Below, piece by piece: positions 1-45,159 of a DNA stretch of 45,159 bases (positions are counted from its first letter, which is position 1; the number at the start of each line of letters is the position of its first letter). The stretch is from a virus. The DNA lies in IMG/VR virus record IMGVR_UViG_3300029197_000008; one strand, 5' to 3'. The notes below the pieces were generated by a model that saw only the letters and a program-made list of their open reading frames with translations, ran no database searches and was not told the origin of the DNA. A program made the position numbers and the translations under genes.

Positions 1-165
1 ACCCTTTTATAAAGGTATGATCACCAATAGACTAGTTACTGTTCCTCTTGTTCCGGGACTTTATCTAGTTTCAACGTATCCTATATAGAATGAATTATGA
101 AATGGAGGTACATAAATAGCCGGTGCAAGCATAAGCCCTACATCAGTGCAGACAGGGGCGAAATA
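1..165. repeat. Terminal overlap copy 1 (identical to 44995-45159)
   Basis: Base-by-base identity read directly from the sequence. Either a circular-assembly overlap or terminal redundancy. Confidence 0.95.
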
Positions 166-278
166 TGCGATTGCTGTTGATGTTCGGAATGTCCAGTATG
201 TATTAGGCACAAGTGATGGATCAGCACTTGCCACTTCTGATGGTTCGATGCTGAGAGTGAAATAATAGAGGTGATTAT

Positions 279-701
279 ATGGCAGAATCATTAAAAACAA
301 TATTAATGTCGGCACTGGCTTCGAAAGCAACGCCGGCAGAAAGTGACACATTGATAGTTGGAGAAGGGAATGTATTAAAAAAAATATCGTTCTCACAATT
401 ATTTACATACCTGAAAGACAAGCTAGGCATTAATACATTAAACACGAAGATAACTTTTGTAAATCAAGTTTGTAAAGGTACTGGAGCAGGATATATCTAT
501 ATTAATCCACCAGATACTAACAATGATTATTACTTAATAGGAGCTACTAATGCGGACTGGAACGCTTGTCCAGTTAGTATAGTTGCTGTAAGTAGGCAAA
601 ATTCTACTCATATAGTGCATTTTACGGGTAACATTGAAAATGGTAAATCTGTTCGAATACTCAGTATGTGGACACAAGCTAAATATATAACTTTTAAATA
701 A
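279..701 (+). CDS. Small tail-fibre / receptor-binding protein, currently expressed isoform (constant aa 1-53 plus tip cassette 1, aa 54-140)
   Basis: SD GAGGTGA upstream of the ATG. The N-terminus (ATPAESDTLIVGEGNVLKKISFSQLFTYL) is paralogous to the N-terminus of ORF 44780-45082, directly downstream of the tail spike. The 16-nt recombination repeat starts exactly at codon 54. Confidence 0.7.
   Translation: MAESLKTILMSALASKATPAESDTLIVGEGNVLKKISFSQLFTYLKDKLGINTLNTKITFVNQVCKGTGAGYIYINPPDTNNDYYLIGATNADWNACPVSIVAVSRQNSTHIVHFTGNIENGKSVRILSMWTQAKYITFK
438..453 (+). repeat. Putative recombinase crossover site A (TTAAACACGAAGATAA)
   Basis: Perfect inverted copy at 1046-1061 and a 15/16 direct copy at 2183-2198. 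All three are codon-phased as L-N-T-K/N-I. Confidence 0.75.
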
Positions 702-710
702 TAATATAAT

Positions 711-1061
711 TTATGCTCGTATAAACATTAAATCTGCTATATAATTAGCTGCAATTATAAACCCAGAAGCAACAATGTCATAACCATTTGATGAAACGGA
801 TAATGCACCAATATATGCTTTGTAACCTTGTACAGTACCCATACCAATAACACCAATATTAGCATTAACCGTTGATACTTTTACAGGTAATGTCATAATC
901 ACTGTTCCTGACTGTATACCTGAATTATCAATAGAGTTAAATCCAATATGAAGATATAAAAAACTATCGTTATATATACAATATGTTTGCCCAGTTTGCA
1001 AATATCCGCCACCATTATATGTTTTTAATGTAACATTTTTATTATTTATCTTCGTGTTTAA
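711..1061 (-). other. Silent (start-less) tail-fibre tip cassette 2, 116 codons
   Basis: The open frame begins in phase at site B (LNTKINNKNV...) and lies tail-to-tail with cassette 1 (9-nt gap). It has no SD or start of its own at the junction. It shares a CIYN motif with cassette 4. Confidence 0.65.
1046..1061 (-). repeat. Putative crossover site B (reverse complement of site A, 16/16)
   Basis: Plus strand reads TTATCTTCGTGTTTAA. Confidence 0.75.
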
Positions 1062-1100
1062 CACACTCTTATCGTATAATTGAGGTAGGAGGTGTTTAAC

Positions 1101-2093
1101 ATGGATATAAGAAGAAATATCATACAATCGGTATTACAGATGTTGCACGGAAAAGTCGATACAGAAGTTATTGATACTGTTCAGGACGTACTTGTGATTC
1201 AACTTAATCAGTACGAGATTCAGGAACGCAGTACGAAACTGACGGTTTCTGACAACAGCTCAGAGGGATTGCTGAGACGCTACATTGCTACAAAACGTAT
1301 TGAAGGCAAAGCAGAATCAACTCTAAAAAGATATTGGGAACAGAATTTGAAACTGATTCAATTTATCCAAAAGCCACTTCATGAAATCATGATAGATGAT
1401 ATCAGGTTTTACATGGCTTATCGCAGACAGCAAGGTGGTATCAGCAACCGCACACTTGACGGTATGAGACGGTGCTATAGGACTTTCTTTTCTTGGCTCA
1501 CAGCAGAGGGATTGATTAACAGGAATCCATGTACTGCACTAAGTCAGATTAAAAGCCGAAAGCAGATAAAAAAACCGTATTCAGCGGTAGAGATGGAGTT
1601 AATCAGGAAATCATGCACTGACAAGCGTGATATTGCATTGGTAGAATTTTTGTATTCTACTGGGTGCCGTGTATCTGAGGTGTCTGGATTAGACATCATG
1701 GACATTGATACAAATACTGGCGAATGCGTTGTTATCGGTAAAGGCAATAAGGAACGCACAGTATATCTGACAGATGTGGCATTATTGCATCTCAGGATAT
1801 ATCTTGACAGCAGAAATGACAACAGTATAGCTTTATTTACCGGCAAAGGCTCAAATAGATTAACAAAAAGCGGAATAGAGAACCTATTAAAGCGAATTGG
1901 AAAAACAGCAGGTGTGACAAATGTTCATCCTCATCGCTTTAGGCGAACACTGGCAACTAATTTGCTTGATCGTGGAATGAATATTCAAGATGTTGCCATG
2001 ATACTAGGTCATGCAGACCTAAAAACAACTCAGATTTATTGTTTCATAAGTCAATGTAACGTAAAGAATGCATATCGCAAGTATGCAGCATAA
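1101..2093 (+). CDS. Tyrosine site-specific recombinase (XerC/D- or Rci-like); putative tail-fibre invertase
   Basis: SD AGGTAGGAGG 8 nt before ATG 1101. SAM-like N-domain. Catalytic signature GCRVSE ... HPHRFRRTLAT ... LGHADLKTTQIY. Sits between sites B and C. Confidence 0.9.
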   Translation: MDIRRNIIQSVLQMLHGKVDTEVIDTVQDVLVIQLNQYEIQERSTKLTVSDNSSEGLLRRYIATKRIEGKAESTLKRYWEQNLKLIQFIQKPLHEIMIDDIRFYMAYRRQQGGISNRTLDGMRRCYRTFFSWLTAEGLINRNPCTALSQIKSRKQIKKPYSAVEMELIRKSCTDKRDIALVEFLYSTGCRVSEVSGLDIMDIDTNTGECVVIGKGNKERTVYLTDVALLHLRIYLDSRNDNSIALFTGKGSNRLTKSGIENLLKRIGKTAGVTNVHPHRFRRTLATNLLDRGMNIQDVAMILGHADLKTTQIYCFISQCNVKNAYRKYAA

Positions 2094-2182
2094 CCATTAA
2101 CCGAAGTATTTGATACTCCGGGGATAACTCCGGAGTTTTTAGTATGCAATAAAAAAATTAAGAAAGGAAAAGAGATAGAAAA

Positions 2183-2198
2183 TTAAACACGAATATAA
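2183..2198 (+). repeat. Putative crossover site C (TTAAACACGAATATAA, 15/16)
   Basis: Direct orientation relative to site A and inverted relative to site B. In phase with the downstream cassette. Confidence 0.65.
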
Positions 2199-2494
2199 GT
2201 AATTTAATGCAAATATCATCTGATACAATTAAAGACATAGATGTTCCTGCGTCAGGATCTGTAATGATAACATTTACTAAATTCAAACCTAAAAGTGGTT
2301 ATAATAGGGTTGTTTTAGCTCATAGTTTTAATAATTCTTCTAACGGAGGTTCAAATTATTCTGGAATGTTTATATATAACACTACAGGAGTAACGGACGG
2401 AATACAAGTATTTATTCATAATGTATGGAATAGCAAAGGAAAGGTTAATTTATCATTAACTGTTGCATATATACAATCAAATTTCTTTAATTAA
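2183..2494 (+). other. Silent tail-fibre tip cassette 3 (103 aa, LNTNISNLMQISSD...)
   Basis: The frame is open only from 2162. Site C is in phase. No SD precedes the internal ATG at 2207. Confidence 0.55.
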
Positions 2495-2729
2495 TGCTAA
2501 TAAATCCGTCTTTTATATAGTTATTAATAGCATTGATGGTGCTAACTGCGCCTGTAACACTATTTGCACCTATTCCTAACAAAGTCTTTAAATTTACTCC
2601 ATTTGGAAATGTGGCTAGTAGAGTACCATTAGCAAGGCCATCAGGAATTGCTAAAGTTAAATGAGCAAATACTATATCATTATTGTATATGCAATATGCG
2701 CCGCCAAGTTTGTTGTGACTGTTTATGGC
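2487..2729 (-). other. Tip cassette 4, apparently fossil (no crossover site)
   Basis: Tail-to-tail with cassette 3 (8-nt overlap). INSHNKLGGAYCIYNN aligns with INNKN...TYCIYND of cassette 2. The expected LNTK site is replaced by unrelated sequence. Confidence 0.45.
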
Positions 2730-2779
2730 ATGCCAACGGCAACAGAATAAGGCAAGTAATAGCACTTTAGATGGAATGA

Positions 2780-3019
2780 GGAATAAAAAAGGCTCAGATC
2801 GAGCAGATTGTGAACCAGATAAGCGAGAGAGCAAATCTTGTAAGACAGCTGTATCCTCATCTTATCCGGCATACCACAGCCACAATGTCTCTTGAGCGTG
2901 GTATGGATGTTACGGAATTGCAAAAGATGTTAGGACATGAAAAATTAGACACGACTATGATTTATGCGAAGGTATCGCAAGAATCATTGAAATACAGTCA
3001 CCACAGATACGTGGTGTGA
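2780..3019 (+). pseudogene. C-terminal fragment (about 80 aa) of a second tyrosine recombinase
   Basis: YPHLIRHTTATMSLERGMDVTELQKMLGHEKLDTTMIYAKV aligns with the HxxR...GH...Y end of the intact recombinase (roughly 40-45 percent identity by eye). An in-frame stop at 2777 removes the N-terminal three quarters. Confidence 0.75.
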
Positions 3020-3031
3020 AAGGAGCACAAC

Positions 3032-4489
3032 ATGGAAATTAAAGGAATTGACGTATCATCGTGGCAAGGGAAACCGGATTGGGCAAAAGTATCAAAATCT
3101 GGAGTTAAGTTTGCAATATTAAGAATCAATCAGAAATCTGGAATTGACGAATCATTCGAACACAACTACAAGGGCTGTAAATCCAATGGAATTCTTATTG
3201 GTGGATATAAGTACAGCTATGCTTTAACATCGGCACAAGCTATCGAGGAAGCTGAGAACGTAATTTCTGTTCTTGGTGGACGTGGACTTGACTTTCCAGT
3301 ATTCTACGATCTGGAATGGGCACAGCAAAGAAGTCTCGGAAAACAGGCTATCGAGAATATTGCAGTAGCGTTTCTGACCAGAATCAAGAAAGCTGGTTAT
3401 AAGGCCGGTATCTACTGTAATCTGGACTGGTATAATAACGTTCTGTCAGATGCTTTGAAGCAGTATGATTGTTGGATTGCTCGTTATCCAGCGGATGATA
3501 ACGGCACTGTCCAAACACGACTGAAGCCATTGGCCGGTGTAGGCTGGCAGTATTCCAGCAAAGGAAAAGTTCCAGGAATCAGCGGAAATGTTGATATGGA
3601 TGTGTTCTACAAGGACTACAGAGATTCTAACCAGAAAGGAGAAACTAAAATGGTAAAAATCAGTAACTGCGGACATGATGAAAGAGGAAGATATGCAGGT
3701 GGGAAAGCAGGAGATCAGACTGGTACAGAATATCAGATCATGAACTGGTACAGTAGACCGTGGCTCTGTGTCCTAAGATTCAATGACGCCAAAATCGCAA
3801 CCATGATTGCAGACATGGCGACAAAAGCGGCACAGAACAATCTCATCGGATACGATCAGGGCACTGCCGGAAACAGCAATGACCGGTATTCGTTCTGGCG
3901 GCACTTAAAAGCAAGTAACTACGATCCGGCGCAGATCACAATAGCTTGTGAATCTGACTGTAGTGCAAGTACAGCTGCAATCGTTAAGGGTGCTGGATAT
4001 CGCCTAAATAATGCAAAACTGAAAGCAGTAAGCATCTATCTGACAACGCGAAACATGAGACAGGCATTGAAGAATGCAGGGGCAAAGGTACTGACAGATA
4101 AAAAATATCTGACTTCCGGCGATTATCTGAAAGCCGGAGACATTCTTCTGAATGACAGCCACCATGTAGCTATTGCAGTCACAAGCGGAAGCAAATCCAG
4201 CAATACTGCAAATAATACAACAACTACAATAACCACGAAAGGAGCCGGTTATATGTTTGAGCCAAAATTAGTAAAACTTGGAAGCGAAGGAACTTCTGTC
4301 CTGTTGCTTCAAGAGATTTTGATCGCAAGAGGATTTAAAGGAAAAAACGGGAAAGCACTGAGCTTATCCAGAAAAGCAGATGCAAATACCATTTATGCAT
4401 TAAAACAGTATCAGAAATCCAGAAACGGGGTTCTGAGCGTTGACGGGGAATGCGGAAAGAACACCTGGAAAGATTTGATTGCCATCTAA
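3032..4489 (+). CDS. Endolysin: GH25 muramidase N-domain plus C-terminal PG_binding_1-like domain
   Basis: GIDVSSWQG ... FAILR ... YDLEW GH25 motifs. C-terminal GSEGTSVLLLQEILIARGF...VDGECGKNTWKDL. SD AAAGGAG. Confidence 0.9.
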   Translation: MEIKGIDVSSWQGKPDWAKVSKSGVKFAILRINQKSGIDESFEHNYKGCKSNGILIGGYKYSYALTSAQAIEEAENVISVLGGRGLDFPVFYDLEWAQQRSLGKQAIENIAVAFLTRIKKAGYKAGIYCNLDWYNNVLSDALKQYDCWIARYPADDNGTVQTRLKPLAGVGWQYSSKGKVPGISGNVDMDVFYKDYRDSNQKGETKMVKISNCGHDERGRYAGGKAGDQTGTEYQIMNWYSRPWLCVLRFNDAKIATMIADMATKAAQNNLIGYDQGTAGNSNDRYSFWRHLKASNYDPAQITIACESDCSASTAAIVKGAGYRLNNAKLKAVSIYLTTRNMRQALKNAGAKVLTDKKYLTSGDYLKAGDILLNDSHHVAIAVTSGSKSSNTANNTTTTITTKGAGYMFEPKLVKLGSEGTSVLLLQEILIARGFKGKNGKALSLSRKADANTIYALKQYQKSRNGVLSVDGECGKNTWKDLIAI

Positions 4490-4528
4490 TAATTGGCTAA
4501 TGGCATTGCCACCTTTTTGTCGCTGATA

Positions 4529-4618
4529 GGAACAAAAGACAAAACCGACTGGTACTATATCCGCATTGCCGGAAAATATTTTGGATTTGTTTCTGCAAAA
4601 TACATCAAAAAAGTATAA
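4529..4618 (+). pseudogene. Remnant of an SH3b-type cell-wall-binding domain
   Basis: GTKDKTDWYYIRIAGKYFGFVSAKYIKKV lies in the same frame as the endolysin, directly after its TAA TAA double stop. Confidence 0.5.
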
Positions 4619-4622
4619 AATA

Positions 4623-4654
4623 TCCCGGGGTTAATTCCCCGGGAGTTTCTTTTT
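4623..4654. terminator. Rho-independent terminator between convergent endolysin and integrase genes
   Basis: 7-8 bp GC stem CCCGGGG/CCCCGGG, loop TTAATT, then TTTCTTTTT. Confidence 0.8.
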
Positions 4655-4706
4655 AAAATTAATGATAGCATCATTGCGCCAGCGAACTGGCACATAGAAG
4701 ATGTCA

Positions 4707-6281
4707 TTAATCATTTTTTTGAATTTTTGGGAAAATGTCTAGCTCAAAATTAATCTCGTTACCTTTGCCGTAAGTGTTTTTTATATTTTTCGAGTAGACG
4801 ACTTTTTCAACTAGATTCTTGAGCATTCTATTTCGTGATTCTATGTTAAGGTCCCAATAGTTATTAAGCAGCTCTTCACAACGCGGAATAAAATTCGACT
4901 GTTGTGCCTTAATATTCTCATCGTGTTCGATTTCTTCTCTTAATTTCGTAATAATATCAGAGCATGATTGGATAGACCTAGCTATGGTTTTGGAGCGTTC
5001 AAGGAAGACTTCTGTGGTGTAGATTCCGCGCTCAAGCAGATCGTATTGTTTTACTTTTTGGACATTTAAGCTTTCCAGCTCACTTTCTTTTTCGCGTATA
5101 AGATTTTGCTTAGATATTATACCGGAATTAATAGTATTAGACGGAGTATTAATATCATTGTTCAGTTTATACTTCTCTGCTATTTCTTTGATTCCATCAA
5201 GTACAGCTTTTTCAACCAGAGATAATTTGCTACTCACTGTAGGGCAAGACGTATATGGACACATAAGAGTATCTTCCTGTCCGCGTTTTTGATGAGGGCG
5301 GCGAACCATGGCACGACCACACTTGCTGCAATAGACAATTCCGGCAAGCGGATTGCGAACTGTGTTTTTTATGCTAATCGGACGGGGTGGGTTCTTTTGA
5401 CGTATCTCTTGCACAGAATTATACAGATCGTCTGATATAATAGACGGATGCAATCCCTCACAGATAAGGACATTCCTGGACCGTGGGCGTGTCTTGACTA
5501 CTTGACCATTCTGTATAGTCTTTACTGTTTTTCGACCATTCCACCGGATTTTTCCTATATACACCGGATTTGTTAGAATTCCCTGTATGCTGGCAGGAGT
5601 CCAGTCACCACCTAGCGCAGATTTTATTCCCATGTCGTTTAATTTCCGTACAATCTTCGCAACTCCAATTTGCTCACAACCATCACCGGCATACCAGGTG
5701 TATATCATATTTACGATCTCGGCTTGAGCCGGAACAGGTCTGAGGGTATAACCTTTTTCTTTTTCGAGTTTTACTCTTTCGTATCCGTAAGGTGGTTTGT
5801 TGCCACAGTATTTTCCCTCTTTGACCGATGAGATTCTACCATTATTCAATCGGCGCTTGATGGTCTTATATTCACGTCTGGACATAAAAAGTCCAAATTC
5901 GAAGTATTCTTCATCAAATTCATTGTTCGGATCATATATTTTTGTAGGGGTAATAATCTTCGTGTCAGAGTATTGAAAAGCTCTGGACACAACACCTTGG
6001 TCGATGGTGTCACCTCTGGCAAGACGCTCTACTTCGACAACCAAAACACCGTCCCACATGCCGGATTCTACTTCGTGAAGGAGTTGCTGCATGACAGGGC
6101 GGTCGGCGATAGTTTCTCCAGATACCACTTCGCGGTAAATTGCGCCCACAATGTACTCTTTTTTCTTTGCGAAATCTAACAGAATCCGCTGATGTCTGGC
6201 GAGTGTTTCGCCCTCTCCATGTGCTTCAGCTTCCCGATCGGCTCTGGATTTCCTTAAATAGATGCATACTGATTCATTCAT
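4707..6281 (-). CDS. int: Large serine recombinase (phage integrase)
   Basis: N-terminal resolvase domain (IYLRKSRAD catalytic Ser), recombinase domain, zinc ribbon CSKCGRAM...CPYTSCP, C-terminal coiled coil. Confidence 0.92.
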   Translation of the reverse strand: MNESVCIYLRKSRADREAEAHGEGETLARHQRILLDFAKKKEYIVGAIYREVVSGETIADRPVMQQLLHEVESGMWDGVLVVEVERLARGDTIDQGVVSRAFQYSDTKIITPTKIYDPNNEFDEEYFEFGLFMSRREYKTIKRRLNNGRISSVKEGKYCGNKPPYGYERVKLEKEKGYTLRPVPAQAEIVNMIYTWYAGDGCEQIGVAKIVRKLNDMGIKSALGGDWTPASIQGILTNPVYIGKIRWNGRKTVKTIQNGQVVKTRPRSRNVLICEGLHPSIISDDLYNSVQEIRQKNPPRPISIKNTVRNPLAGIVYCSKCGRAMVRRPHQKRGQEDTLMCPYTSCPTVSSKLSLVEKAVLDGIKEIAEKYKLNNDINTPSNTINSGIISKQNLIREKESELESLNVQKVKQYDLLERGIYTTEVFLERSKTIARSIQSCSDIITKLREEIEHDENIKAQQSNFIPRCEELLNNYWDLNIESRNRMLKNLVEKVVYSKNIKNTYGKGNEINFELDIFPKIQKND

Positions 6282-6417: not shown

Positions 6418-7311
6418 TAAAAGTTCTGATTTTTTCTGGTCAAATTCTTCTTGAGTAATAATACCGCTATCTAAAAGCTCTTTGTAATCCTTCAGTAGTT
6501 CAACGGATGTTTTCTGATTTCGAACATTTTCAACAGCATCAGAGCTTTTGGAAATATTGAAGCTCTTTAACTGCATATCTATATTTGAACTACAGCGGAA
6601 TCCAATAATATTTATTTGATTGGTTTCGATATTCCGCATTTTCATAGATGCATAAGAATCCACTTCAATGTTATCACTTGTTGTGGTAGCAGTTCCAGTA
6701 GTAGTGGAATTATTCTTTCCTTTAGTTTTCTTTCCGGTTCCAACAGCTGCACCGACAGCTGCGCCGACAACAGGGTTTCCAAGCGTGACAGCTGTAGCAG
6801 CCGTACCAATAACAGCACCAGCTAATCTTCCTTTTCGTTTTGTTTTTTCTTTACTTTTCCCTTTAGTGTGAGATGTTGTAGTTGTCTTTTCTACTGTTCT
6901 GTATTCCGGCCCGTTCCATTCATAGTCGAAAAGTTCATATTTGGTTGGAGCATCTGACACTGTAACAGATCCATCTTTCCATTGCTTCAAATCAAATCTT
7001 GTGTGTTTGGAACCAAGCTCAAAATCCTCCTTACCGGATATAACTCTCAGATTCAATACTCGAACAGGTTTTTCTACAACCGCCGGCTGGGTTGCTACGG
7101 AATTATTTGATATTGCAGGTTTTTGAACCTTATTTTTAATAGACAGCAAAAGTGCAAAAATAAGATACAAAACAGCAATTCCAAATACCTCAAGTACAAC
7201 AACGACCATAATATTGTCTGATGAAAGATCGTTTGAACTCATCAAGGCCACAATCATTAATACAATTAATGCGGTCCAAACGATCATCAACACATTTCGT
7301 ATTTTTTTCAT
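6415..7311 (-). CDS. Membrane protein with Thr/Gly/Lys-rich linker and C-terminal SHOCT-like motif
   Basis: Two N-terminal TM helices. C-terminus is LLKDYKELLDSGIITQEEFDQKKSELL. ATG 7311 is preferred (SD AAGGGGG) over the track GTG at 7329. Lies 20 nt downstream of the LytTR gene. Confidence 0.6.
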   Translation of the reverse strand: MKKIRNVLMIVWTALIVLMIVALMSSNDLSSDNIMVVVVLEVFGIAVLYLIFALLLSIKNKVQKPAISNNSVATQPAVVEKPVRVLNLRVISGKEDFELGSKHTRFDLKQWKDGSVTVSDAPTKYELFDYEWNGPEYRTVEKTTTTSHTKGKSKEKTKRKGRLAGAVIGTAATAVTLGNPVVGAAVGAAVGTGKKTKGKNNSTTTGTATTTSDNIEVDSYASMKMRNIETNQINIIGFRCSSNIDMQLKSFNISKSSDAVENVRNQKTSVELLKDYKELLDSGIITQEEFDQKKSELL

Positions 7312-37821: not shown

Positions 37822-40536
37822 ATGGCTGCTGATGGCTCAGTCATTATTGATACCAGAATGGATACAACCGGTGTCCAGAATGGTGTCTCAGCTATAAAAC
37901 AGTCATTTAACGGCCTTGGAAGTGCTGTAAAAAAAATCGGTCTGCTGATTGGTGGGGCTTTTGCAGTTGGTAAGTTAGTACAGTTCGGCAAAGAGTGCGT
38001 GGAACTCGGCTCTGACCTTGCGGAAGTACAGAACGTGGTCGATGTTACATTTACAACCATGTCTGACAAAGTAAATGAATTCGCAAAGAACGCCATGACT
38101 TCTGCCGGATTATCTGAAACTATGGCAAAAAGGTATGTCGGCACGTTCGGAGCAATGTCTAAGTCGTTCGGATTTTCAGAATCACAGGCTTACGACATGT
38201 CAACGGCCCTGACACAGCTGACTGGTGATGTGGCATCATTCTACAACATCAGTCAGGACTTGGCTTATATCAAACTGAAATCAGTGTTTACGGGTGAAAC
38301 GGAAACATTAAAAGATTTGGGCGTGGTAATGACCCAGTCGGCACTTGACCAATATGCACTTGCAAATGGCTACGGCAAAACCACATCTGCAATGACTGAA
38401 CAGGAGAAAGTTGCTCTCCGCTTTGCTTTTGTGCAGGAACAGTTATCAGCCGCATCTGGTGACTTCATTCGTACTTCTGACAGCTGGGCGAACCAGGTGC
38501 GAGTGATGCAGTTGCAGTTGCAGTCCCTCAAGGCAACAGTCGGACAAGGGCTGATTAATATTTTTACACCTGTTCTGAAAGTAATCAATATTCTTCTCGG
38601 TAAACTGGCGACTCTGGCAAACGCATTTAAGTCATTCACGGAGCTTATTACTGGCAAGAAATCTTCCGGTCAAACGAGCGGAAGTGGAGCAGGCCTTGCC
38701 GGAACAGACGCGATCGCAGATACAGCAGATCAGTATGGACAGGCAGCGGATAATGCAGAGAAACTGGCAGATGCCACGAACGACAATGCAAAAGCCACAA
38801 AAAAAGCGAATAAGGAAACAAAAAACTATCTTTCGTCACTTGATGAAGTTCACAAAGCCACATCTACTGGCAGCAATTCATCTTCCACACCATCTTCATC
38901 TGGTGGAAGTGGTGGAGCAGGTAACAGCGGTCTTCCGAGTTCAGTTGGTAATGTGGACTACGGAAATCTCGCAGAAGGTGAAACCGCGCTTGATAAGATT
39001 AGCGATTCCGCAAAGAAACTTGCTGACCTTCTCAAAAAACTCTGGAAACCGTTCCGGGAAGCATGGAAAAAAGAGGGTAAGAATACCATTGATGCGGCAA
39101 GTATTGCTTTGTCGGGAATTGCAAAACTTGCTAAGAGTGTAGGTAAAAGCCTTGTAGAGGTCTGGACAAATGGCACAGGCACAACGATGCTTACGACCAT
39201 GCTGAGGATTGCTCAGAACGTGCTTAAAACTATCGGTAATATTGCATCTGGTTTCGCTGATGCTTGGAATAAGAACAATGTCGGAACGCAGATTATACAG
39301 AACATTGCAGATGCCCTTGTGGTGGTTATGCAGTTTGTTGAAAAAATCGCAGAGGATACAGCAACATGGGCGGCAAACTTGGACTTCTATCCGTTACTAG
39401 AATCCATCAGTAACCTGACCAGTACCTTTGCGCCAATTCTGGAATCTATCGGAAATGTTCTTGAATGGATTTATAACAATATTGTTCTCCCAATGCTGAA
39501 ATGGCTGATTGAAACAGGAATTCCGACAGTGATTAACCTAGTGTCTGATTTGGCTGGATTCTTTGCAGATCATCAATCAATCATTGAAGCATTTGGCGCA
39601 GCTCTGATCGGAGCATTTGCGGCAGCGAAGATTGCAGGCTTAGCTTCGAGAATCGCAGGAAGTATAACGACAGTAGCAAGTTTCATTAAGGGTCTTATTG
39701 CACTCATGACCGGCTCTGGCGGCATTATTGGTGGAATCAAAGCCATTGCGACAGCTGTCGGACCGGGCGGAATTTTTATAGCAGCAGTAACAGCTTGCAT
39801 TGCGATTGGTGTATTGCTGTACAAAAACTGGGACAAAATAAAAGAAGTTGCAGGTGCGGTATGGAGTTGGATTAAAGACAAAACCATAGCTTTCGTTGAT
39901 GGAATAAAATCCAAACTAAGTGATTTGGCAGAAAAGATTGTTTCTATTTGGAATGGTATCAAATCAAGTGCAAAAGAAAAGTGGAGCGCTATATGGTCCA
40001 CTATAAAAGAAGTTGTAAAGAGGATAGTTGATGGAATCGTTGATAAATTCAAAAGTGCAAGAGACAAGGTTGTTGATACGTTCGAGGGTATTAAAAACAA
40101 AGTTAAAGAGATATTCAATAAAGTTATCGGTATCGTAAATGGCGCAATCGGTACGGTGAACGGCGCGATCAGTGGAATTGAATCTGCAATGTCATTTGGT
40201 CCGTGGGAAGTGCCTACACCATTCGGCTCTAAGACGATCGGATTTAGCGCAAGCTTTCCAAGAGTACCGACTATTCCATATCTGGCAAAAGGTGCAGTTA
40301 TTCCACCAAGAAGCGAATTTCTGGCTGTCCTTGGAGACCAGAAACAGGGTAATAACATCGAGGCACCAGAAGCACTACTTAGGAATATTGTCCGAGAAGA
40401 AACTGGTGGACAGCAGAGTAGTGGAAATTATCGTTTTACCGCTCAGATTAACCGAAGAACAGTGTTTGACGAAATTATCGAAGAAGCAAAGTTAAGACAG
40501 AATACAAGCGGCAGAAATCCGTTTGAACTGGCATAG
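37822..40536 (+). CDS. Tape measure protein
   Basis: 904 aa, helical, with Gly-rich and TM-like central segments. Canonical position. Confidence 0.9.
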   Translation: MAADGSVIIDTRMDTTGVQNGVSAIKQSFNGLGSAVKKIGLLIGGAFAVGKLVQFGKECVELGSDLAEVQNVVDVTFTTMSDKVNEFAKNAMTSAGLSETMAKRYVGTFGAMSKSFGFSESQAYDMSTALTQLTGDVASFYNISQDLAYIKLKSVFTGETETLKDLGVVMTQSALDQYALANGYGKTTSAMTEQEKVALRFAFVQEQLSAASGDFIRTSDSWANQVRVMQLQLQSLKATVGQGLINIFTPVLKVINILLGKLATLANAFKSFTELITGKKSSGQTSGSGAGLAGTDAIADTADQYGQAADNAEKLADATNDNAKATKKANKETKNYLSSLDEVHKATSTGSNSSSTPSSSGGSGGAGNSGLPSSVGNVDYGNLAEGETALDKISDSAKKLADLLKKLWKPFREAWKKEGKNTIDAASIALSGIAKLAKSVGKSLVEVWTNGTGTTMLTTMLRIAQNVLKTIGNIASGFADAWNKNNVGTQIIQNIADALVVVMQFVEKIAEDTATWAANLDFYPLLESISNLTSTFAPILESIGNVLEWIYNNIVLPMLKWLIETGIPTVINLVSDLAGFFADHQSIIEAFGAALIGAFAAAKIAGLASRIAGSITTVASFIKGLIALMTGSGGIIGGIKAIATAVGPGGIFIAAVTACIAIGVLLYKNWDKIKEVAGAVWSWIKDKTIAFVDGIKSKLSDLAEKIVSIWNGIKSSAKEKWSAIWSTIKEVVKRIVDGIVDKFKSARDKVVDTFEGIKNKVKEIFNKVIGIVNGAIGTVNGAISGIESAMSFGPWEVPTPFGSKTIGFSASFPRVPTIPYLAKGAVIPPRSEFLAVLGDQKQGNNIEAPEALLRNIVREETGGQQSSGNYRFTAQINRRTVFDEIIEEAKLRQNTSGRNPFELA

Positions 40537-40547
40537 GAGGTGGAAGA

Positions 40548-40946
40548 ATGGCAACTATTCCAAAAAGCATAACAGAACGATACAAGATGAACGGGGCCTC
40601 CATCTATCAGCCAGATAAAGATATGGGTTATAACCTCGAAACAACTTATTCAGAAGGTAGTAACCGTACGCAGTTCGGAAAAGCGTTGTTAACTCCATTG
40701 TTTACAGTTGAACAGTATAGCTATGAAGCATCAAACGTTCCAGTTATAGAAACAAACAAAATTCTCAAAATTATCGCAAAAGGAAAAACTTTCAATTTGT
40801 ACCATTGGTCGCTTTACCACATGGCATGGAGAACTGACCCGTTTTATGTCGGAAAAGCAAGCCTAACTATTGGAGAAATTTCGCCAGACTTAAAATTTGT
40901 ATCAAAAATATCTTTTAACATGCAGGGGGTGAATCCACTTGATTAA
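40548..40946 (+). CDS. Distal tail protein-like
   Basis: Position after the tape measure. Only 132 aa, which is short for a Dit. Confidence 0.5.
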   Translation: MATIPKSITERYKMNGASIYQPDKDMGYNLETTYSEGSNRTQFGKALLTPLFTVEQYSYEASNVPVIETNKILKIIAKGKTFNLYHWSLYHMAWRTDPFYVGKASLTIGEISPDLKFVSKISFNMQGVNPLD

Positions 40947-43900
40947 TGTATCTGATACATTTAAGCAAAAACTACAGGACGGAGAAAGAGTCTGGCAGGA
41001 AGTGGAAATCACCTTTCCTGACGGAACTGTAAAAACAGTCAAAAATGAAATCATGGGCGAAAACTGCACTTTTTCCGATTGTGCAGAAAGTAGCGGCTTT
41101 CCGATTGGCTGCGTTGTTTGTAAATCCATGACATTGGAGTTGGACAACACTTCTGATCAGTGGAAAAACTATAATTTCTACATGGCAAAAGTTCATGCGT
41201 ATCTTAAAATGCAGACCTCTGTAGCAAGTCCGGCTACAACAGATGAATTGCTGGATGAAAACTATGACCCAATTCTTGACCAGAGTGGCGGTGCGATTCT
41301 GGCAACAAAAGCAGCGACAGAAGACAGAATCGAAACTATTGATAAAGGTATTTATACAATTACGACACCAGAACAATATGGCGAAATCCTTAGTTTTACT
41401 GCTCTTGATGATATGTACAAAGCAAATGCCACATATACATCAAAATTGGTATTGCCTCAGACAATTATTAATCTTGTCAGAGATGCGTGCGATACATTGA
41501 GCATTCCATTTGGTGGAACAATGCAACATGGCAATCTGATTATATCGGAGATTCCAGAAAATATGACATTTCGCCAGTTATTCGGATGGGCGGCAATGCT
41601 TGAGACTGCGAACGCTCGCCTGGACAGCAGAGGATACTTGCGATTTATCAAATGGGATTTTTCCAATGTGCAAGAAGATTATGGTGCAATTGCGGATGCT
41701 GATGGAAACATTACGTTTAAAGGTGGTGCAAATGTTGACTCCGATAACTTTATAAGCCCGGTAGGAAACTGGTCGATTGACAATGATGGTTTCTTGACAC
41801 TGATTGAATCAGCTACTGATACATCTGAAAAACTCAAAGACTTTTTTACAAGTCCGACTGTATCCAGCGATGATATTATAATCACTGGAATCAAGCTAAA
41901 AAATAGAGAAAATGAAGCCATGTACGGAAGCACAGGATATGTTCTTGAATTGGAGAACGACCTTGTTGCGGATTCGGACTTGGACACGGTAGCTGCTCAA
42001 ATTGGTGATTCCATAATTGGAGCTAAATTCCGTAACATGTCGGGAGAACTTGCATATAATCCACTCATTGAGTTTGGAGATATGGCATATACTTACGACC
42101 GCAAGTGGAATAGGTATATCACTCCACTGACAGACGTTTCCTGTTTCGTTAATGGAAAGACCACTGTAAAAACTCAAGCCGATGATCCGATCAGAGGAAT
42201 GAGCAAGTTTGTTTCTGATGGGACGAAAGCCATTGTTGAAGCAAGACGACTTGTTAAAAAAGAACAATCAGCTAGAGAAAAAGCAGTAAAGAAATTAGAA
42301 GAAACCTTAAAAAATTCTTCTGGATTATATGAAACATCAGTCGCACAGGAAGATGGTAGTACTATCACATATCTGCACGATAAGCCTACACTCGCAGAAT
42401 CAAAAAATGTAATTAAATTCACAGCAGAAGCCATTGGCGTATCCAATGATGGTGGCAAAACATATCCTTACGGTTTCTTTCTGACAGGCGATTTGATAGC
42501 AAAAATTCTGTACGCGCATGGTATCAATGCTGATTATATTGACACAGGCGCACTGACTGTCAGAGATAGCGATGGAAACATAATCTTCCAGGTTGATATG
42601 GATACCAAAAAAGTAATCATCAGTGGTGATAATGTTGTAATTGGTGACAGTTCTTTGCCGGATAAACTGACAAAAATGGACAACAATATTGCATCTGCCA
42701 AGAATATGACATTCCAGCTGTCGAACGATATGCAGACGATCACATCTGACGCAGACGGAAACATTCCGGTATTTCCGACAGTGGCAACTACAGCGAAAGT
42801 TATGTACGGATCGTCAGATATCACAAATGATTGTAGCTATACCATTACAAAATCAGACAGTGTAACCGGCTCTTGGGATGTCAATACGCACACCTATACA
42901 GTCACAGGACTGATAGCTGATAACGGATGGGTGGATATTAAAGCCACTTACCTGCAAACCTTGTCCATCACAAGAAGATTCACGATTGCCAAGCTTAAAG
43001 CTGGAAAGAACGGAGTCAATGGGCTGGATGGTTTGCAAGGCGAAAAAGGCGAACAAGGAGTTCCCGGAAAAGATGGCAAAGATGGAACAAATGGAGTAGA
43101 CGGCAAGACATCATATTTCCACATCAAATATAGTTCCGTGGCAAATCCGACATCATCTAGTCAGATGACTGAAACTCCGTCCACGTATATAGGTACTTAT
43201 GTAGACTATGAACCGAATGACAGCACAGACCCGAAGAAATATACGTGGTCAAAATTCGAGGGGTCTGATGGTAAAGATGGTATTGCTGGAACGAACGGCA
43301 CAGACGGAAAGACGTATTATCTACATATTGCCTACGCGAACAGTGCTGATGGAAAGACAGGCTTTTCGGTTTCTGATGGAACTAATAAACTGTATATTGG
43401 CCAGTATACGGATACCACCAAGACAGATTCCACTGACCCGACAAAATATACATGGAGTAAGATTAAGGGCGAGACGGGAGCTGATGGAAAACCGGGAAGA
43501 ACCTACATCATTGAGCCGTCTTGTAACGTGCTGAAACGTGGTTCAGATAAAGTGATTAGTCCAAACTTTATAACCTTTAAAGCGTATTATCGTGATGGTG
43601 ATTCAGCTGCTAGAGTACCTTATAAAGGCAGATTTATCGTTGAAGAAACTGTTGATGGAAGTGCTTGGAAAACCATTTATATTAGTTCAACCGATGAGGA
43701 TACAGTAACACACTACCTGTATTCTATTTTAACAAATAGTTCAGGTCAAGCAGTAGCAAGCTCCAATGGCTCAACCATTGGTATTCCTAGAGATGTGACG
43801 AATGTTAGATGTAAATTATATGCATCCGGTGGTACTACGACATTGATGGATATGCAGAGCGTGGCGGTCGTTATTGATATAGACAATTTGACGCAGGAGC

Positions 43901-44778
43901 AAATAGTTAGCATTCTGACTAATGACGGGGCTTGGAAGGGATTATATTATAGCAATGGGCGTCTCTACGTCAGCCTTGATGCTCTTCTTGGTGGAACAGT
44001 TACCTTGGGCGGCAAAAAGAATGGGAACGGTTATCTGAAAATTAAAGATGCCAGCAATGCTGTTAAAGGATTAATTGATCGCTCTGGATATACTGTATTT
44101 ACAAGCTACGAAGAAAATTCAGAGTACATGAAATATACAGGTGTACAGTTTTCAAGCGATGGAATATTCCCTGTTGATATCAAGAAGTTCTTTGGCGATG
44201 AAGTAGATATTGAAATCGAAAATAGCGAAAATTGGGGAATCAGTTGGGACGATAACAGTCTAACCGTACATGCCACAGAGGTATCGGCTGACACTGGTAC
44301 ATTTGAAAATTTAACTGTTACTAATCCTGCATCTTTCGCAAAATCGCCAAAGATAGAAGACATGGAGTATACGACATCATCAAATACTGTTTGTTGGGAT
44401 GGACGTACAGGATACAAACAGCTGATGCTAAAATCTTCATCTTCAAAGCGCTATAAAGATATCGGAAGCGATATTTCGGAGCAAGAAATTGAAGAATGGT
44501 ACAATATCGAACCAACGTGGGCGAAATACAAAAAGGGATATCTAGTTAAAGGGGACGAGAATGAAGGAAGATATATCCCGATGTTTATTGCTGAGAATGT
44601 AGAAGCATTCTTTCCGGAAGCTACTCGGCATCAAAACGGACTTGTTGAGGACTGGAACGAACGTATCATGATACCTGCTATGTTTGCAATGATAAAAAGC
44701 CAGAAAGAACAGCTTGACCGACAGGAGAAACTAATTAATCAGCTCTATGAAAAGTTCAATATAGAAAAGGAGAATTAA
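40939..44778 (+). CDS. Tail-associated spike/fibre protein with collagen-like triplets and a C-terminal S74-type intramolecular chaperone domain
   Basis: GKNGVNGLDGLQGEKGEQGVPGKDGKDGTNGVDGKT. A duplicated module of about 60 aa ends ...DSTDP(K/T)KYTWSK. C-terminal SSSSKRYKDIG ... IPMFIAENVEAFFPEA. Confidence 0.85.
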   Translation: MINVSDTFKQKLQDGERVWQEVEITFPDGTVKTVKNEIMGENCTFSDCAESSGFPIGCVVCKSMTLELDNTSDQWKNYNFYMAKVHAYLKMQTSVASPATTDELLDENYDPILDQSGGAILATKAATEDRIETIDKGIYTITTPEQYGEILSFTALDDMYKANATYTSKLVLPQTIINLVRDACDTLSIPFGGTMQHGNLIISEIPENMTFRQLFGWAAMLETANARLDSRGYLRFIKWDFSNVQEDYGAIADADGNITFKGGANVDSDNFISPVGNWSIDNDGFLTLIESATDTSEKLKDFFTSPTVSSDDIIITGIKLKNRENEAMYGSTGYVLELENDLVADSDLDTVAAQIGDSIIGAKFRNMSGELAYNPLIEFGDMAYTYDRKWNRYITPLTDVSCFVNGKTTVKTQADDPIRGMSKFVSDGTKAIVEARRLVKKEQSAREKAVKKLEETLKNSSGLYETSVAQEDGSTITYLHDKPTLAESKNVIKFTAEAIGVSNDGGKTYPYGFFLTGDLIAKILYAHGINADYIDTGALTVRDSDGNIIFQVDMDTKKVIISGDNVVIGDSSLPDKLTKMDNNIASAKNMTFQLSNDMQTITSDADGNIPVFPTVATTAKVMYGSSDITNDCSYTITKSDSVTGSWDVNTHTYTVTGLIADNGWVDIKATYLQTLSITRRFTIAKLKAGKNGVNGLDGLQGEKGEQGVPGKDGKDGTNGVDGKTSYFHIKYSSVANPTSSSQMTETPSTYIGTYVDYEPNDSTDPKKYTWSKFEGSDGKDGIAGTNGTDGKTYYLHIAYANSADGKTGFSVSDGTNKLYIGQYTDTTKTDSTDPTKYTWSKIKGETGADGKPGRTYIIEPSCNVLKRGSDKVISPNFITFKAYYRDGDSAARVPYKGRFIVEETVDGSAWKTIYISSTDEDTVTHYLYSILTNSSGQAVASSNGSTIGIPRDVTNVRCKLYASGGTTTLMDMQSVAVVIDIDNLTQEQIVSILTNDGAWKGLYYSNGRLYVSLDALLGGTVTLGGKKNGNGYLKIKDASNAVKGLIDRSGYTVFTSYEENSEYMKYTGVQFSSDGIFPVDIKKFFGDEVDIEIENSENWGISWDDNSLTVHATEVSADTGTFENLTVTNPASFAKSPKIEDMEYTTSSNTVCWDGRTGYKQLMLKSSSSKRYKDIGSDISEQEIEEWYNIEPTWAKYKKGYLVKGDENEGRYIPMFIAENVEAFFPEATRHQNGLVEDWNERIMIPAMFAMIKSQKEQLDRQEKLINQLYEKFNIEKEN

Positions 44779-44779
44779 T

Positions 44780-45082
44780 ATGGCAAAATTTAATGAATAT
44801 CCCGTAAAAACAACACCAAAAGATGCAGATAAATTTATGCTTTACAGTGCGGAGGATGCGGCAAACAAGCTGATTGATTATGATAAGCTTGCTGATGCGG
44901 TACTCAATAAATTGACATCAAAGACCTTCGGACTGGATCAGGGAACGATGACGTTACCGGCCGCGCTTAACCAATTAAATAGTAACCGGTTAAAACCCTT
45001 TTATAAAGGTATGATCACCAATAGACTAGTTACTGTTCCTCTTGTTCCGGGACTTTATCTAGTTTCAACGTATCCTATATAG
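44780..45082 (+). CDS. Small tail-fibre-like protein, paralogue of the constant part of 279-701 with a very short tip
   Basis: SD AAAAGGAG. TTPKDADKFMLYSAEDAANKLIDYDKLADAVLNKL ... LNQLNSN followed by only 31 aa. The stop corresponds to 86-88 in start coordinates. Confidence 0.6.
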   Translation: MAKFNEYPVKTTPKDADKFMLYSAEDAANKLIDYDKLADAVLNKLTSKTFGLDQGTMTLPAALNQLNSNRLKPFYKGMITNRLVTVPLVPGLYLVSTYPI

Positions 45083-45159
45083 AATGAATTATGAAATGGA
45101 GGTACATAAATAGCCGGTGCAAGCATAAGCCCTACATCAGTGCAGACAGGGGCGAAATA
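44995..45159. repeat. Terminal overlap copy 2 (identical to 1-165)
   Basis: Same as copy 1. Confidence 0.95.

Follow-up and report, generated by a model that had tools for sequence, protein, structure and literature searches.

Positions 279-2494 of the IMG/VR virus record IMGVR_UViG_3300029197_000008 raise the question of whether a Blautia phage of the gut exchanges the tip of a receptor-binding protein (RBP) by inverting a short piece of its own tail module. The original prediction had described a shufflon-like switch of a tail-fibre tip, driven by an embedded tyrosine recombinase. Here, the whole stretch of 45,159 nucleotides (the window) was compared with public assemblies and with protein, domain and structure databases. 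The shufflon reading agrees with natural inversion isomers that were found in public assemblies, and a probability of roughly 0.85 is given to the locus being a phage-encoded, site-specific RBP shufflon.

The 140-aa gene at 279-701 carries the 16-mer TTAAACACGAAGATAA from codon 54 onward (279 + 53 × 3 = 438; 438-453, plus strand), where it reads L-N-T-K-I. The exact reverse complement lies at 1046-1061, and a copy with one mismatch, TTAAACACGAATATAA, is located on the plus strand at 2183-2198; all three are in phase as L-N-T-K/N. When up to 3 mismatches were allowed, the 16-mer had 5 matches in the 45-kb window against 0.78 expected (5 or more in 0 of 100 shuffles), and the three copies with 0-1 mismatch all fall inside one 1.8-kb region. 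The second copy heads the frame of a silent tip cassette, B (711-1061 including the site, minus strand; LNTKINNKNV...), a frame of 116 codons that opens without a start codon; 9 nt separate its end from the stop of gene 279-701. The third copy heads the frame of cassette C (2183-2494 including the site; LNTNISNL...), with 103 codons, and this frame too opens without a start codon. Given the local G+C content of 29%, the chance of meeting no stop is 4.9e-5 for the 116 codons of B and 1.5e-4 for the 103 codons of C. The G+C content is 29% in the cassettes (438-1061 and 2183-2494), 39% in the recombinase gene and 41% in the whole genome. A constant 5′ segment and several promoterless, in-phase 3′ cassettes (A, B and C), the arrangement of a shufflon, are present. 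The coordinates and phase of the copy at codon 54, the inverted copy heading a start-less open reading frame (ORF) of 116 codons with a 9-nt gap, and the one-mismatch third copy heading an in-phase start-less ORF had all been claimed before and were reproduced. A fourth tip-like ORF (2487-2834, minus strand) had been claimed as well; its part at 2514-2716 is a fragment of a D-type tip, while the remainder is read-through into recombinase debris.

A protein database was queried with the predicted chimera, consisting of constant residues 1-53 and cassette B. This chimera exists as P0001, a protein of 169 aa that is 97% identical over its full length, and several more proteins joining the constant part to B were found. 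P0001 is encoded on contig L001, with which the window is collinear over 948 nt after in silico inversion of 454-1045. The native window aligns with L001 in two pieces, with 439-1060 reversed at 99.7% identity. The predicted outcome of inverting 454-1045, a 169-aa protein with tip B, is therefore a real gene in a collinear contig. In public proteins the same N-terminus is joined to at least six unrelated or distantly related tips, always at ...LGINTLNT(K/N).

The full layout of the locus reads constant / S1 / X> <Y / S2′ / recombinase / S3 / Z> <W / S4′ / holin. L002 and L003, two prophages from different samples, agree at 99.83% and 99.93% in their flanks, and the 606 nt from S1 to S2′ stand in opposite orientation at 100% identity. 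Ten more loci were obtained by exact-sequence lookup of the window recombinase, and the 16 sister loci comprise four isomers, namely C> <E with A> <B (4 loci), E> <C with A> <B (4), C> <E with B> <A (7) and E> <C with B> <A (1). The recombinase protein encoded by the sister loci with four isomers is identical to that of the window. In contig L046 a constant flank of the window type is followed by B′> <A′ and then by the recombinase, the order expected after a flip. Between samples as well as between lineages, inversion isomers are seen whose breakpoints fall in the sites; the junctions of L001, L002/L003 and L046 lie at the repeats, as had been predicted, and every breakpoint is in a 10-nt core. 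Inverted repeats of 10-16 bp are far shorter than assembly k-mers, and several assemblers as well as isolate genomes are represented, which argues that the isomers are not assembly artefacts. The L046 contig stops on the last base of the S3 core TAAACACGAA (6897-6906), as is expected of a branch in the assembly graph if both orientations of the distal module are present in the sample.

The sister prophages L001-L009 and L036-L045 sit inside the spore-coat gene cotJC (Mn_catalase, Mn-catalase) of Blautia obeum, and silent B is carried by L002-L009. A large serine recombinase, or a fragment of one, is located at the prophage boundary of L001 and L002. L001 is a remnant of about 4 kb in which only the RBP switch, the holin and the endolysin are retained. 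In L042, a long-read-style contig, in-frame stops occur just after the core (2334-2951 and 4699; LNTKYKQFNANII and LNTKITIL, each directly followed by the stop), which indicates either decayed cassettes or consensus errors.

In total 28 distinct junctions were collected, and the 10 nt TAAACACGAA are invariant in all of them. The sequence left of the core is specific for the position (constant gene, upstream of the recombinase, downstream of the recombinase, or outer flank), and the sequence right of it is specific for the cassette. Accordingly, a short asymmetric crossover site stands at the head of each cassette. Since the last 5 nt of the 16-mer (GATAA, TATAA, GTTAG, GTTAA, TTTGA and others) move with each cassette, strand exchange must, as judged from the aligned junctions, be confined to the 10-nt core, or to 11 nt where the preceding base is also common. 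The mismatch in the third copy is by the same comparison cassette C's own sequence and not decay. Cassette B occupies all four site positions, and A and C three each. In sister prophages A occupies the S3 or S4′ position as a silent cassette, and C is 98.5% identical to a cassette of the cotJC family that is expressed in L002 and L016 and silent in L003. This combinatorial pattern of cassettes and positions is the defining mark of a shufflon. Whole cassettes are exchanged at fixed sites, unlike the scattered adenine-specific substitution of a diversity-generating retroelement. In one full-length RBP, P0056, the site-encoded peptide occurs three times in tandem (LGINSLNTKTNSLNTKINSLNTN...), as if the site had been triplicated.

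The ORF between the second and third site copies matches Phage_integrase (2e-37) and an N-terminal SAM-like (core-binding) domain. The protein aligns with XerC-like, XerD and XerA structures over residues 57-327, behind an N-terminal extension of about 59 aa; Phage_integrase and SAM-like domains were the only ones detected, and no arm-binding domain was found. GCRVSE, KGNKER, HPHRFRR, LGH and TQIY are readable, so that the R/K/HxxR/H/Y set is intact, and the claim of an intact tyrosine recombinase between the second and third copies holds on both the Pfam match and the catalytic motifs. Residue for residue the protein equals WP_118197696.1 of B. obeum. It is found on 902 contigs, and 1,541 blocks of the collection are listed by the contig index. 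Public annotation names it XerC/XerD or 'integron integrase' and names its target 'hypothetical protein'; its NCBIfam matches are XerA, XerC, XerD and integron integrase, together with weak FimB/E-type invertase models. This putative invertase is distinct from the integrase, as a separate large serine recombinase is encoded at 4707-6281. The division of labour that had been proposed, a serine recombinase integrating and a tyrosine recombinase inverting, agrees with the comparative data from the sister prophages. Promoter-like matches were at chance level (18 against 15.6 expected).

More distant relatives of the enzyme were found in similar surroundings. In L010, a Muricoprocola aceti prophage, a recombinase with 60% identity is accompanied by the same core and layout. 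In L013 a recombinase with 41% identity occupies the centre of a Type I restriction-modification hsdS shufflon that has a different core. This relative places inversion enzymes in the recombinase clade; together with the identical layout of the two arrays it tentatively suggests that phage RBP shufflons and host restriction-specificity shufflons may share a recent common origin. At 2471-6009 of L013 (HsdM, HsdS), four copies of ACAAATGATTATTTAGC in alternating orientation surround the tyrosine recombinase. The cultured phages compared carry recombinases 30-34% identical to the window enzyme; in Clostridium scindens phage phiCs5676-1 the relative sits in another context. In Terrisporobacter phage TPELB_ph1 (L031; PP197244.1) a 34%-identical tyrosine recombinase annotated 'integrase' (3923-4918) lies between a 577-aa gene in tail-fibre position and the holin, and a second 'integrase' of 527 aa is encoded further along; no silent cassettes and no matching inverted repeats were found in this phage.

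The public annotation as XerC/XerD or integron integrase would also suit a different explanation, in which the tips are reassorted by homologous exchange at the conserved LNTLNTK-coding stretch and the recombinase serves Xer-like dimer resolution or acts as a second integrase. Such mosaicism would fit TPELB_ph1, with its related recombinase in the same position and no detectable cassettes, and the 98.5-99.8% identity of the cassette region across phages whose backbones are about 81-92% identical, which indicates that modules move. However, an identity of 10-16 bp is too short for RecA-type exchange, and the inversions are precise within prophages that are otherwise 99.8-100% identical. Moreover, promoterless, start-less convergent cassette pairs are maintained, the recombinase is always embedded between sites, and the integrase position is already taken by the large serine recombinase. 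Mosaicism is thus considered very improbable, the least probable of the explanations weighed here.

For the site-specific shufflon the following course of events is proposed. Codons 1-53 would form a constant anchor and the remainder an exchangeable receptor-binding head. The recombinase would pair the inverted cores at 439-448 and 1051-1060 and invert the segment of about 600 bp between them, by which tip A would be replaced in frame by tip B, turning a 140-aa into a 169-aa protein, with reversal at a later time. A population of lysogens would in this way release virions with either of two host specificities, the tips presumably binding different receptors. In its intact form the system comprises four cassettes and as many sites (constant / X> <Y / recombinase / Z> <W), and in this phage the distal half has decayed, leaving a two-state switch and one stranded cassette, C.

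The orientation of the recombinase itself poses a further puzzle. It has the same direction as the tail genes in 26 of the 26 loci where the constant gene and the recombinase are both present (the window, L002-L007, L009, L010, L016-L019, L033-L040 and L042-L046). Each convergent pair of sites around a cassette module was found flipped, and the inverted pairs S2′/S3 (1.1 kb apart) and S1/S4′, recombination at which would turn the recombinase gene around, were never seen recombined. Cassettes have nevertheless crossed the recombinase: A/B forms the proximal pair in the window and L018, whereas the cotJC family has it as the distal pair. Genomes with an inverted recombinase may be selected against or quickly reverted, or the enzyme may distinguish between site pairs. 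The last option, an armless invertase that discriminates between site pairs by built-in pairing or by a topological filter, is a tentative suggestion with rather less than an even chance of being correct; if true, it would offer a natural way into the open question of directionality control in armless tyrosine invertases.

The extent of the decay in the window can be read against its closest intact relative, L018, which is 97.9% identical over 113-2193 and has the order constant / A> <B / recombinase / D> <F / S4′ / endolysin. The 203-nt D fragment of the window corresponds, at 98.5% identity, to L018 5343-5141; in L018 the D cassette is complete, with 107 codons and a site at its head. Downstream of the fragment lie remnants of a second, divergent tyrosine recombinase: the motif RQQ..SNSTLDGMR is readable at 2725-2775, and 2810-3019 matches Pfam Phage_integrase (3e-13) over profile positions 115-170 only. 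The C-terminus of this second enzyme is 39% identical to the intact one and 53% to enzymes in L020-L024. As the pieces run straight into the endolysin start, an older array, larger or different, may once have been present and then been deleted. A fourth site was found in 2200-3100 neither as the 16-mer (up to 3 mismatches) nor as the minus-strand core (up to 2 mismatches). The decay is real and not an assembly error, as contigs from two other samples are 100% identical to the window across 81-5701. Without a fourth site no invertible segment includes C or the D fragment, and by this arrangement of sites only the A/B pair would be able to flip in the window. S1 and S3 are direct repeats, recombination between which would fuse C to the constant part and delete A, B and the recombinase; C could hence be reached only by an irreversible deletion of 438-2183 in which the recombinase is lost too. 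A product of this kind exists in L008, which equals L002 without the S1-S3 interval, and two-cassette loci devoid of the recombinase recur in other lineages (L001, L047/L048).

The switched protein was characterized by structure prediction. The constant+B protein P0001, modelled from 42 homologues (predicted local distance difference test score, pLDDT, 74), begins with a helix and a hairpin, continues with a helical neck in which the site-encoded LNTLNTK lies, and ends in a head rich in beta structure. Its top fold matches in the PDB are TP901-1 ORF49 (BppL), Listeria phage PSA gp15 and the lactococcal p2 RBP head; the top 15 are all siphophage RBPs and include the TP901-1/p2 chimeric RBP. Next come reovirus sigma1 and adenovirus fibre heads, and in a viral library the matches were to tail fibre and minor tail proteins. 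In TP901-1, BppL is held by the baseplate protein BppU, and the tail protein preceding the switch has a BppU-like domain. The slot between the tail genes and the lysis genes is the usual location of a siphophage receptor-binding protein. Based on the fold matches, the BppU-like domain and the gene position, the switched protein is best read as a putative BppL-like receptor-binding protein.

Several observations weigh against the proposed reading, the first of which concern the identity of the protein. Neither for the RBP nor for the cassettes was a family found in Pfam, NCBIfam or PHROGs, and a profile search against PDB sequences gave no match for the RBP. The fold scores of P0001 are modest (Foldseek E ~7e-4, template-modelling score 0.35-0.53, from a medium-confidence monomer model), which is no surprise for a single chain with trimers as its best fold matches, and the model of the window's own A-type protein (pLDDT 57) was too poor for a search. 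In view of the missing family match and the modest structural match, the switch could be real and the variable protein a tail accessory, for instance a decoration protein, with adhesion left to nearby candidates such as the 1279-aa collagen/BppU-like tail protein or the upstream 163-aa protein. The uniform siphophage RBP matches and the BppU-like neighbour speak for an RBP instead, as do the size of 140-170 aa and the predicted succession of a short N-terminal anchor, a helical neck and a beta head, which are like those of BppL, and the Rin system introduced below, whose variable cassettes are reported to resemble the C-terminus of the TP901-1 RBP. An accessory role is accordingly regarded as unlikely.

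The remaining observations against the reading concern activity. Junctions of the inverted orientation, which had been expected for this locus, were found in related public assemblies, whereas none was found for the exact lineage of the window: the window and L033-L035 are all A> <B, the exact protein of this lineage being carried by only 5 contigs. Heterogeneity within a sample is only suggested, by a contig ending at the core in assemblies rather than reads. Two-cassette loci lacking a recombinase occur in both orientations (L001, L008), and these isomers would have arisen either before the recombinase was deleted or through a recombinase acting in trans. The part of inversion catalyst is ascribed to the present recombinase from its position, conservation and identity, and the distal half of the system is degraded in the window. 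The locus could hence be a fossil, derived from a shufflon and no longer flipping in this lineage, with tip A effectively fixed. The decayed distal module (D fragment, no fourth site, second recombinase in pieces), the uniform A> <B state and the truncation of an upstream candidate paralogue by a 310-nt deletion would fit this view. On the other hand, both A/B cores are perfect, the recombinase is full length with all catalytic residues and identical to that of the four-isomer loci, a module 99.8% identical to A/B occurs in both orientations elsewhere, silent B is still an open 116-codon frame, and five contigs are too few to exclude a minority orientation. A fossil is therefore held to be improbable, if slightly less so than an accessory role. 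With perfect cores, an intact enzyme shared with the four-isomer loci, the A/B module seen both ways and the flipped layout of L046, the shufflon probably still flips in this phage.

Table 1. Features of the window (coordinates in nt; strand relative to the window)
Feature	Coordinates	Strand	Remarks
Constant 5′ segment	279..437	+	codons 1-53 of RBP gene 279-701; N-terminus common to many tips
Site S1	438..453	+	core TAAACACGAA at 439-448; inversion breakpoint against L001 and L046 falls here
Tip cassette A	454..701	+	currently expressed; full-length constant+A proteins P0121-P0135
Tip cassette B	711..1045	-	silent, tail-to-tail with A; expressed as constant+B in P0001 to P0005
Site S2′	1046..1061	-	core at 1051-1060; inverted relative to S1
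Tyrosine recombinase	1101..2093	+	330 aa, XerC/D-like, two domains; between second and third site copies
Terminator-like hairpin and T run	2115..2136	+	after recombinase gene, upstream of S3; putative function
Site S3	2183..2198	+	core at 2184-2193; direct relative to S1
Tip cassette C	2199..2494	+	intact but stranded, no partner site downstream
D-type tip cassette fragment	2514..2716	-	203 nt; both ends and site missing
Second, divergent tyrosine recombinase, remnants	~2725-2775 and 2810-3019	+	abut the endolysin start
Endolysin	3032..4489	+	GH25, ELLD and PG_binding_1
Large serine recombinase	4707..6281	-	524 aa, presumed integrase; outside the cassette array
Tape-measure protein	37822-40536		upstream of the switch on the circle
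Tail protein	40939..44778	+	1279 aa, collagen repeats and BppU-like C-terminal domain; upstream of the switch on the circle

The ends of the window are identical over 165 nt (1-165 = 44995-45159), and the window is for this reason a complete, circularly permuted phage genome of about 44,994 bp. On the circular map the order of genes is tape-measure, BppU-like tail protein, two small ORFs, switch, endolysin and large serine recombinase. Annotated phages gave no DNA-level match across the switch, and the endolysin alone matched. The upstream gene at window 44780-45082 (junction 45077 = 83) encodes 100 aa left of a 163-aa protein; for the 100-aa ORF no family was found in Pfam, NCBIfam or PHROGs. 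In L033 (4195-4686) 310 nt more than in the window are present and the 163-aa protein is intact, the rest being 99.98-100% identical to the window. Contigs L034 and L035 start at window position 81, so the point near 81 may vary in populations. By eye the upstream protein resembles the constant part of the RBP (K-T/A-TP...LN.LN), but with a BLASTP E-value of 1.4 it was not accepted as an RBP paralogue. The small ORF at 116-265 is homologous to a conserved gene of 57 aa located ahead of the RBP gene in sister prophages; this gene starts with MADANIYIAGASISP... in L001, and the homologue of the window and L033 is devoid of that ATG and of the first seven codons.

Blautia obeum is among the commonest human gut commensals, and the system described here is widespread and very common in human gut metagenomes, where it is annotated only as XerC/XerD. 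Its recognition extends tyrosine-invertase phage RBP shufflons from Actinobacteria to Firmicutes and explains why assemblies differ, and sometimes break, at this locus. With at least eight natural RBP heads (A-H) that can be exchanged on an anchor of 53 aa it offers material for host-range study and engineering, and with a 10-bp core and a 330-aa enzyme a compact system for studying the control of inversion versus deletion. Such short sites would probably escape systematic inversion screens built on longer inverted repeats (PMC9881135). In the literature searched for Firmicutes and Blautia no equivalent for Firmicutes phages was found, the only returns being the Rin papers and a general survey of gene-altering inversions, which lists tail-fibre targets without mention of this system (PMC9881135).

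Among known systems, the tail-fibre switches of Mu (Gin), P1 (Cin) and p15B (Min, a multi-segment version) share with the present locus that a phage alternates the C-terminal part of a host-recognition protein by site-specific inversion. They use small serine invertases with an enhancer and Fis and act on long tail fibres of Gram-negative myophages, whereas the recombinase here is of the tyrosine class; the sole serine recombinase of the genome is of the 524-aa integrase type, lies outside the array and is not a small invertase. The R64/IncI1 shufflon, whose sfx sites are asymmetric, has in common a dedicated tyrosine recombinase, a constant 5′ segment, invertible convergent 3′ cassettes and asymmetric sites conserved on one side. 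Its target is the type IV pilus adhesin pilV on a conjugative plasmid instead of a phage tail module, and its recombinase Rci lies outside the array instead of in its centre. This comparison was made by models only, and there was no Rci-specific model among the NCBIfam matches of the window recombinase. The phase-variable hsdS loci of Type I restriction-modification systems, which are switched by tyrosine invertases (PsrA/CreX-type; PMC9881135), have the same succession of cassette pair, recombinase and cassette pair, but are chromosomal, have a different core and vary a DNA-specificity subunit. TP901-1 BppL (ORF49), the best structural match, is similar in size (163 aa against 140-169 aa) and predicted domain order, but it has no detectable sequence similarity and is not phase-variable.

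The closest precedent, closer than Mu Gin, P1 Cin or R64, is the Rin shufflon of Bifidobacterium breve and B. longum prophages, in which a constant 5′ part of the RBP gene (Rc) is joined to variable 3′ cassettes (Rv) with weak similarity to the C-terminus of the TP901-1 RBP (Mavrich et al. 2018; PMC6109161). Rin, the predicted invertase, is an armless XerD-like tyrosine recombinase, and the rix sites are asymmetric and of 11 bp; inversions were seen between prophages and in virion DNA, and it was published as the first phage-encoded tyrosine-family invertase (PMC6109161) and later reported in Eggerthella lenta prophages (PMC8778435). The swapped recombinase roles, which the original prediction had taken as a departure from textbook phages, are consequently not new. 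Among phage-collection matches at E<=1e-20 there was no Bifidobacterium record, and Rin was compared by description only. Both systems combine a temperate siphophage, an armless XerD-like recombinase beside the RBP gene, a constant 5′ part with promoterless 3′ cassettes, an asymmetric site of 10-11 bp heading each cassette, isomers between related prophages and tips that resemble, here by a predicted fold, the TP901-1 RBP, and the Blautia locus fits the functional definition of a Rin-type shufflon. The hosts are Firmicutes (Blautia obeum, Muricoprocola) here and Actinobacteria for Rin, the core is TAAACACGAA against TTCCCTAACCC, and the constant part has 53 aa against 168 aa. In every intact locus the recombinase is located between two convergent cassette pairs, whereas in Rin it stands at the far end of tandem cassettes; unlike in Rin, each pair flips on its own, and no inverted recombinase segment was seen. 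The concept is thus known from Rin, and the Firmicutes host, the core, the size of the constant part and the layout with a central recombinase are what sets the present system apart.

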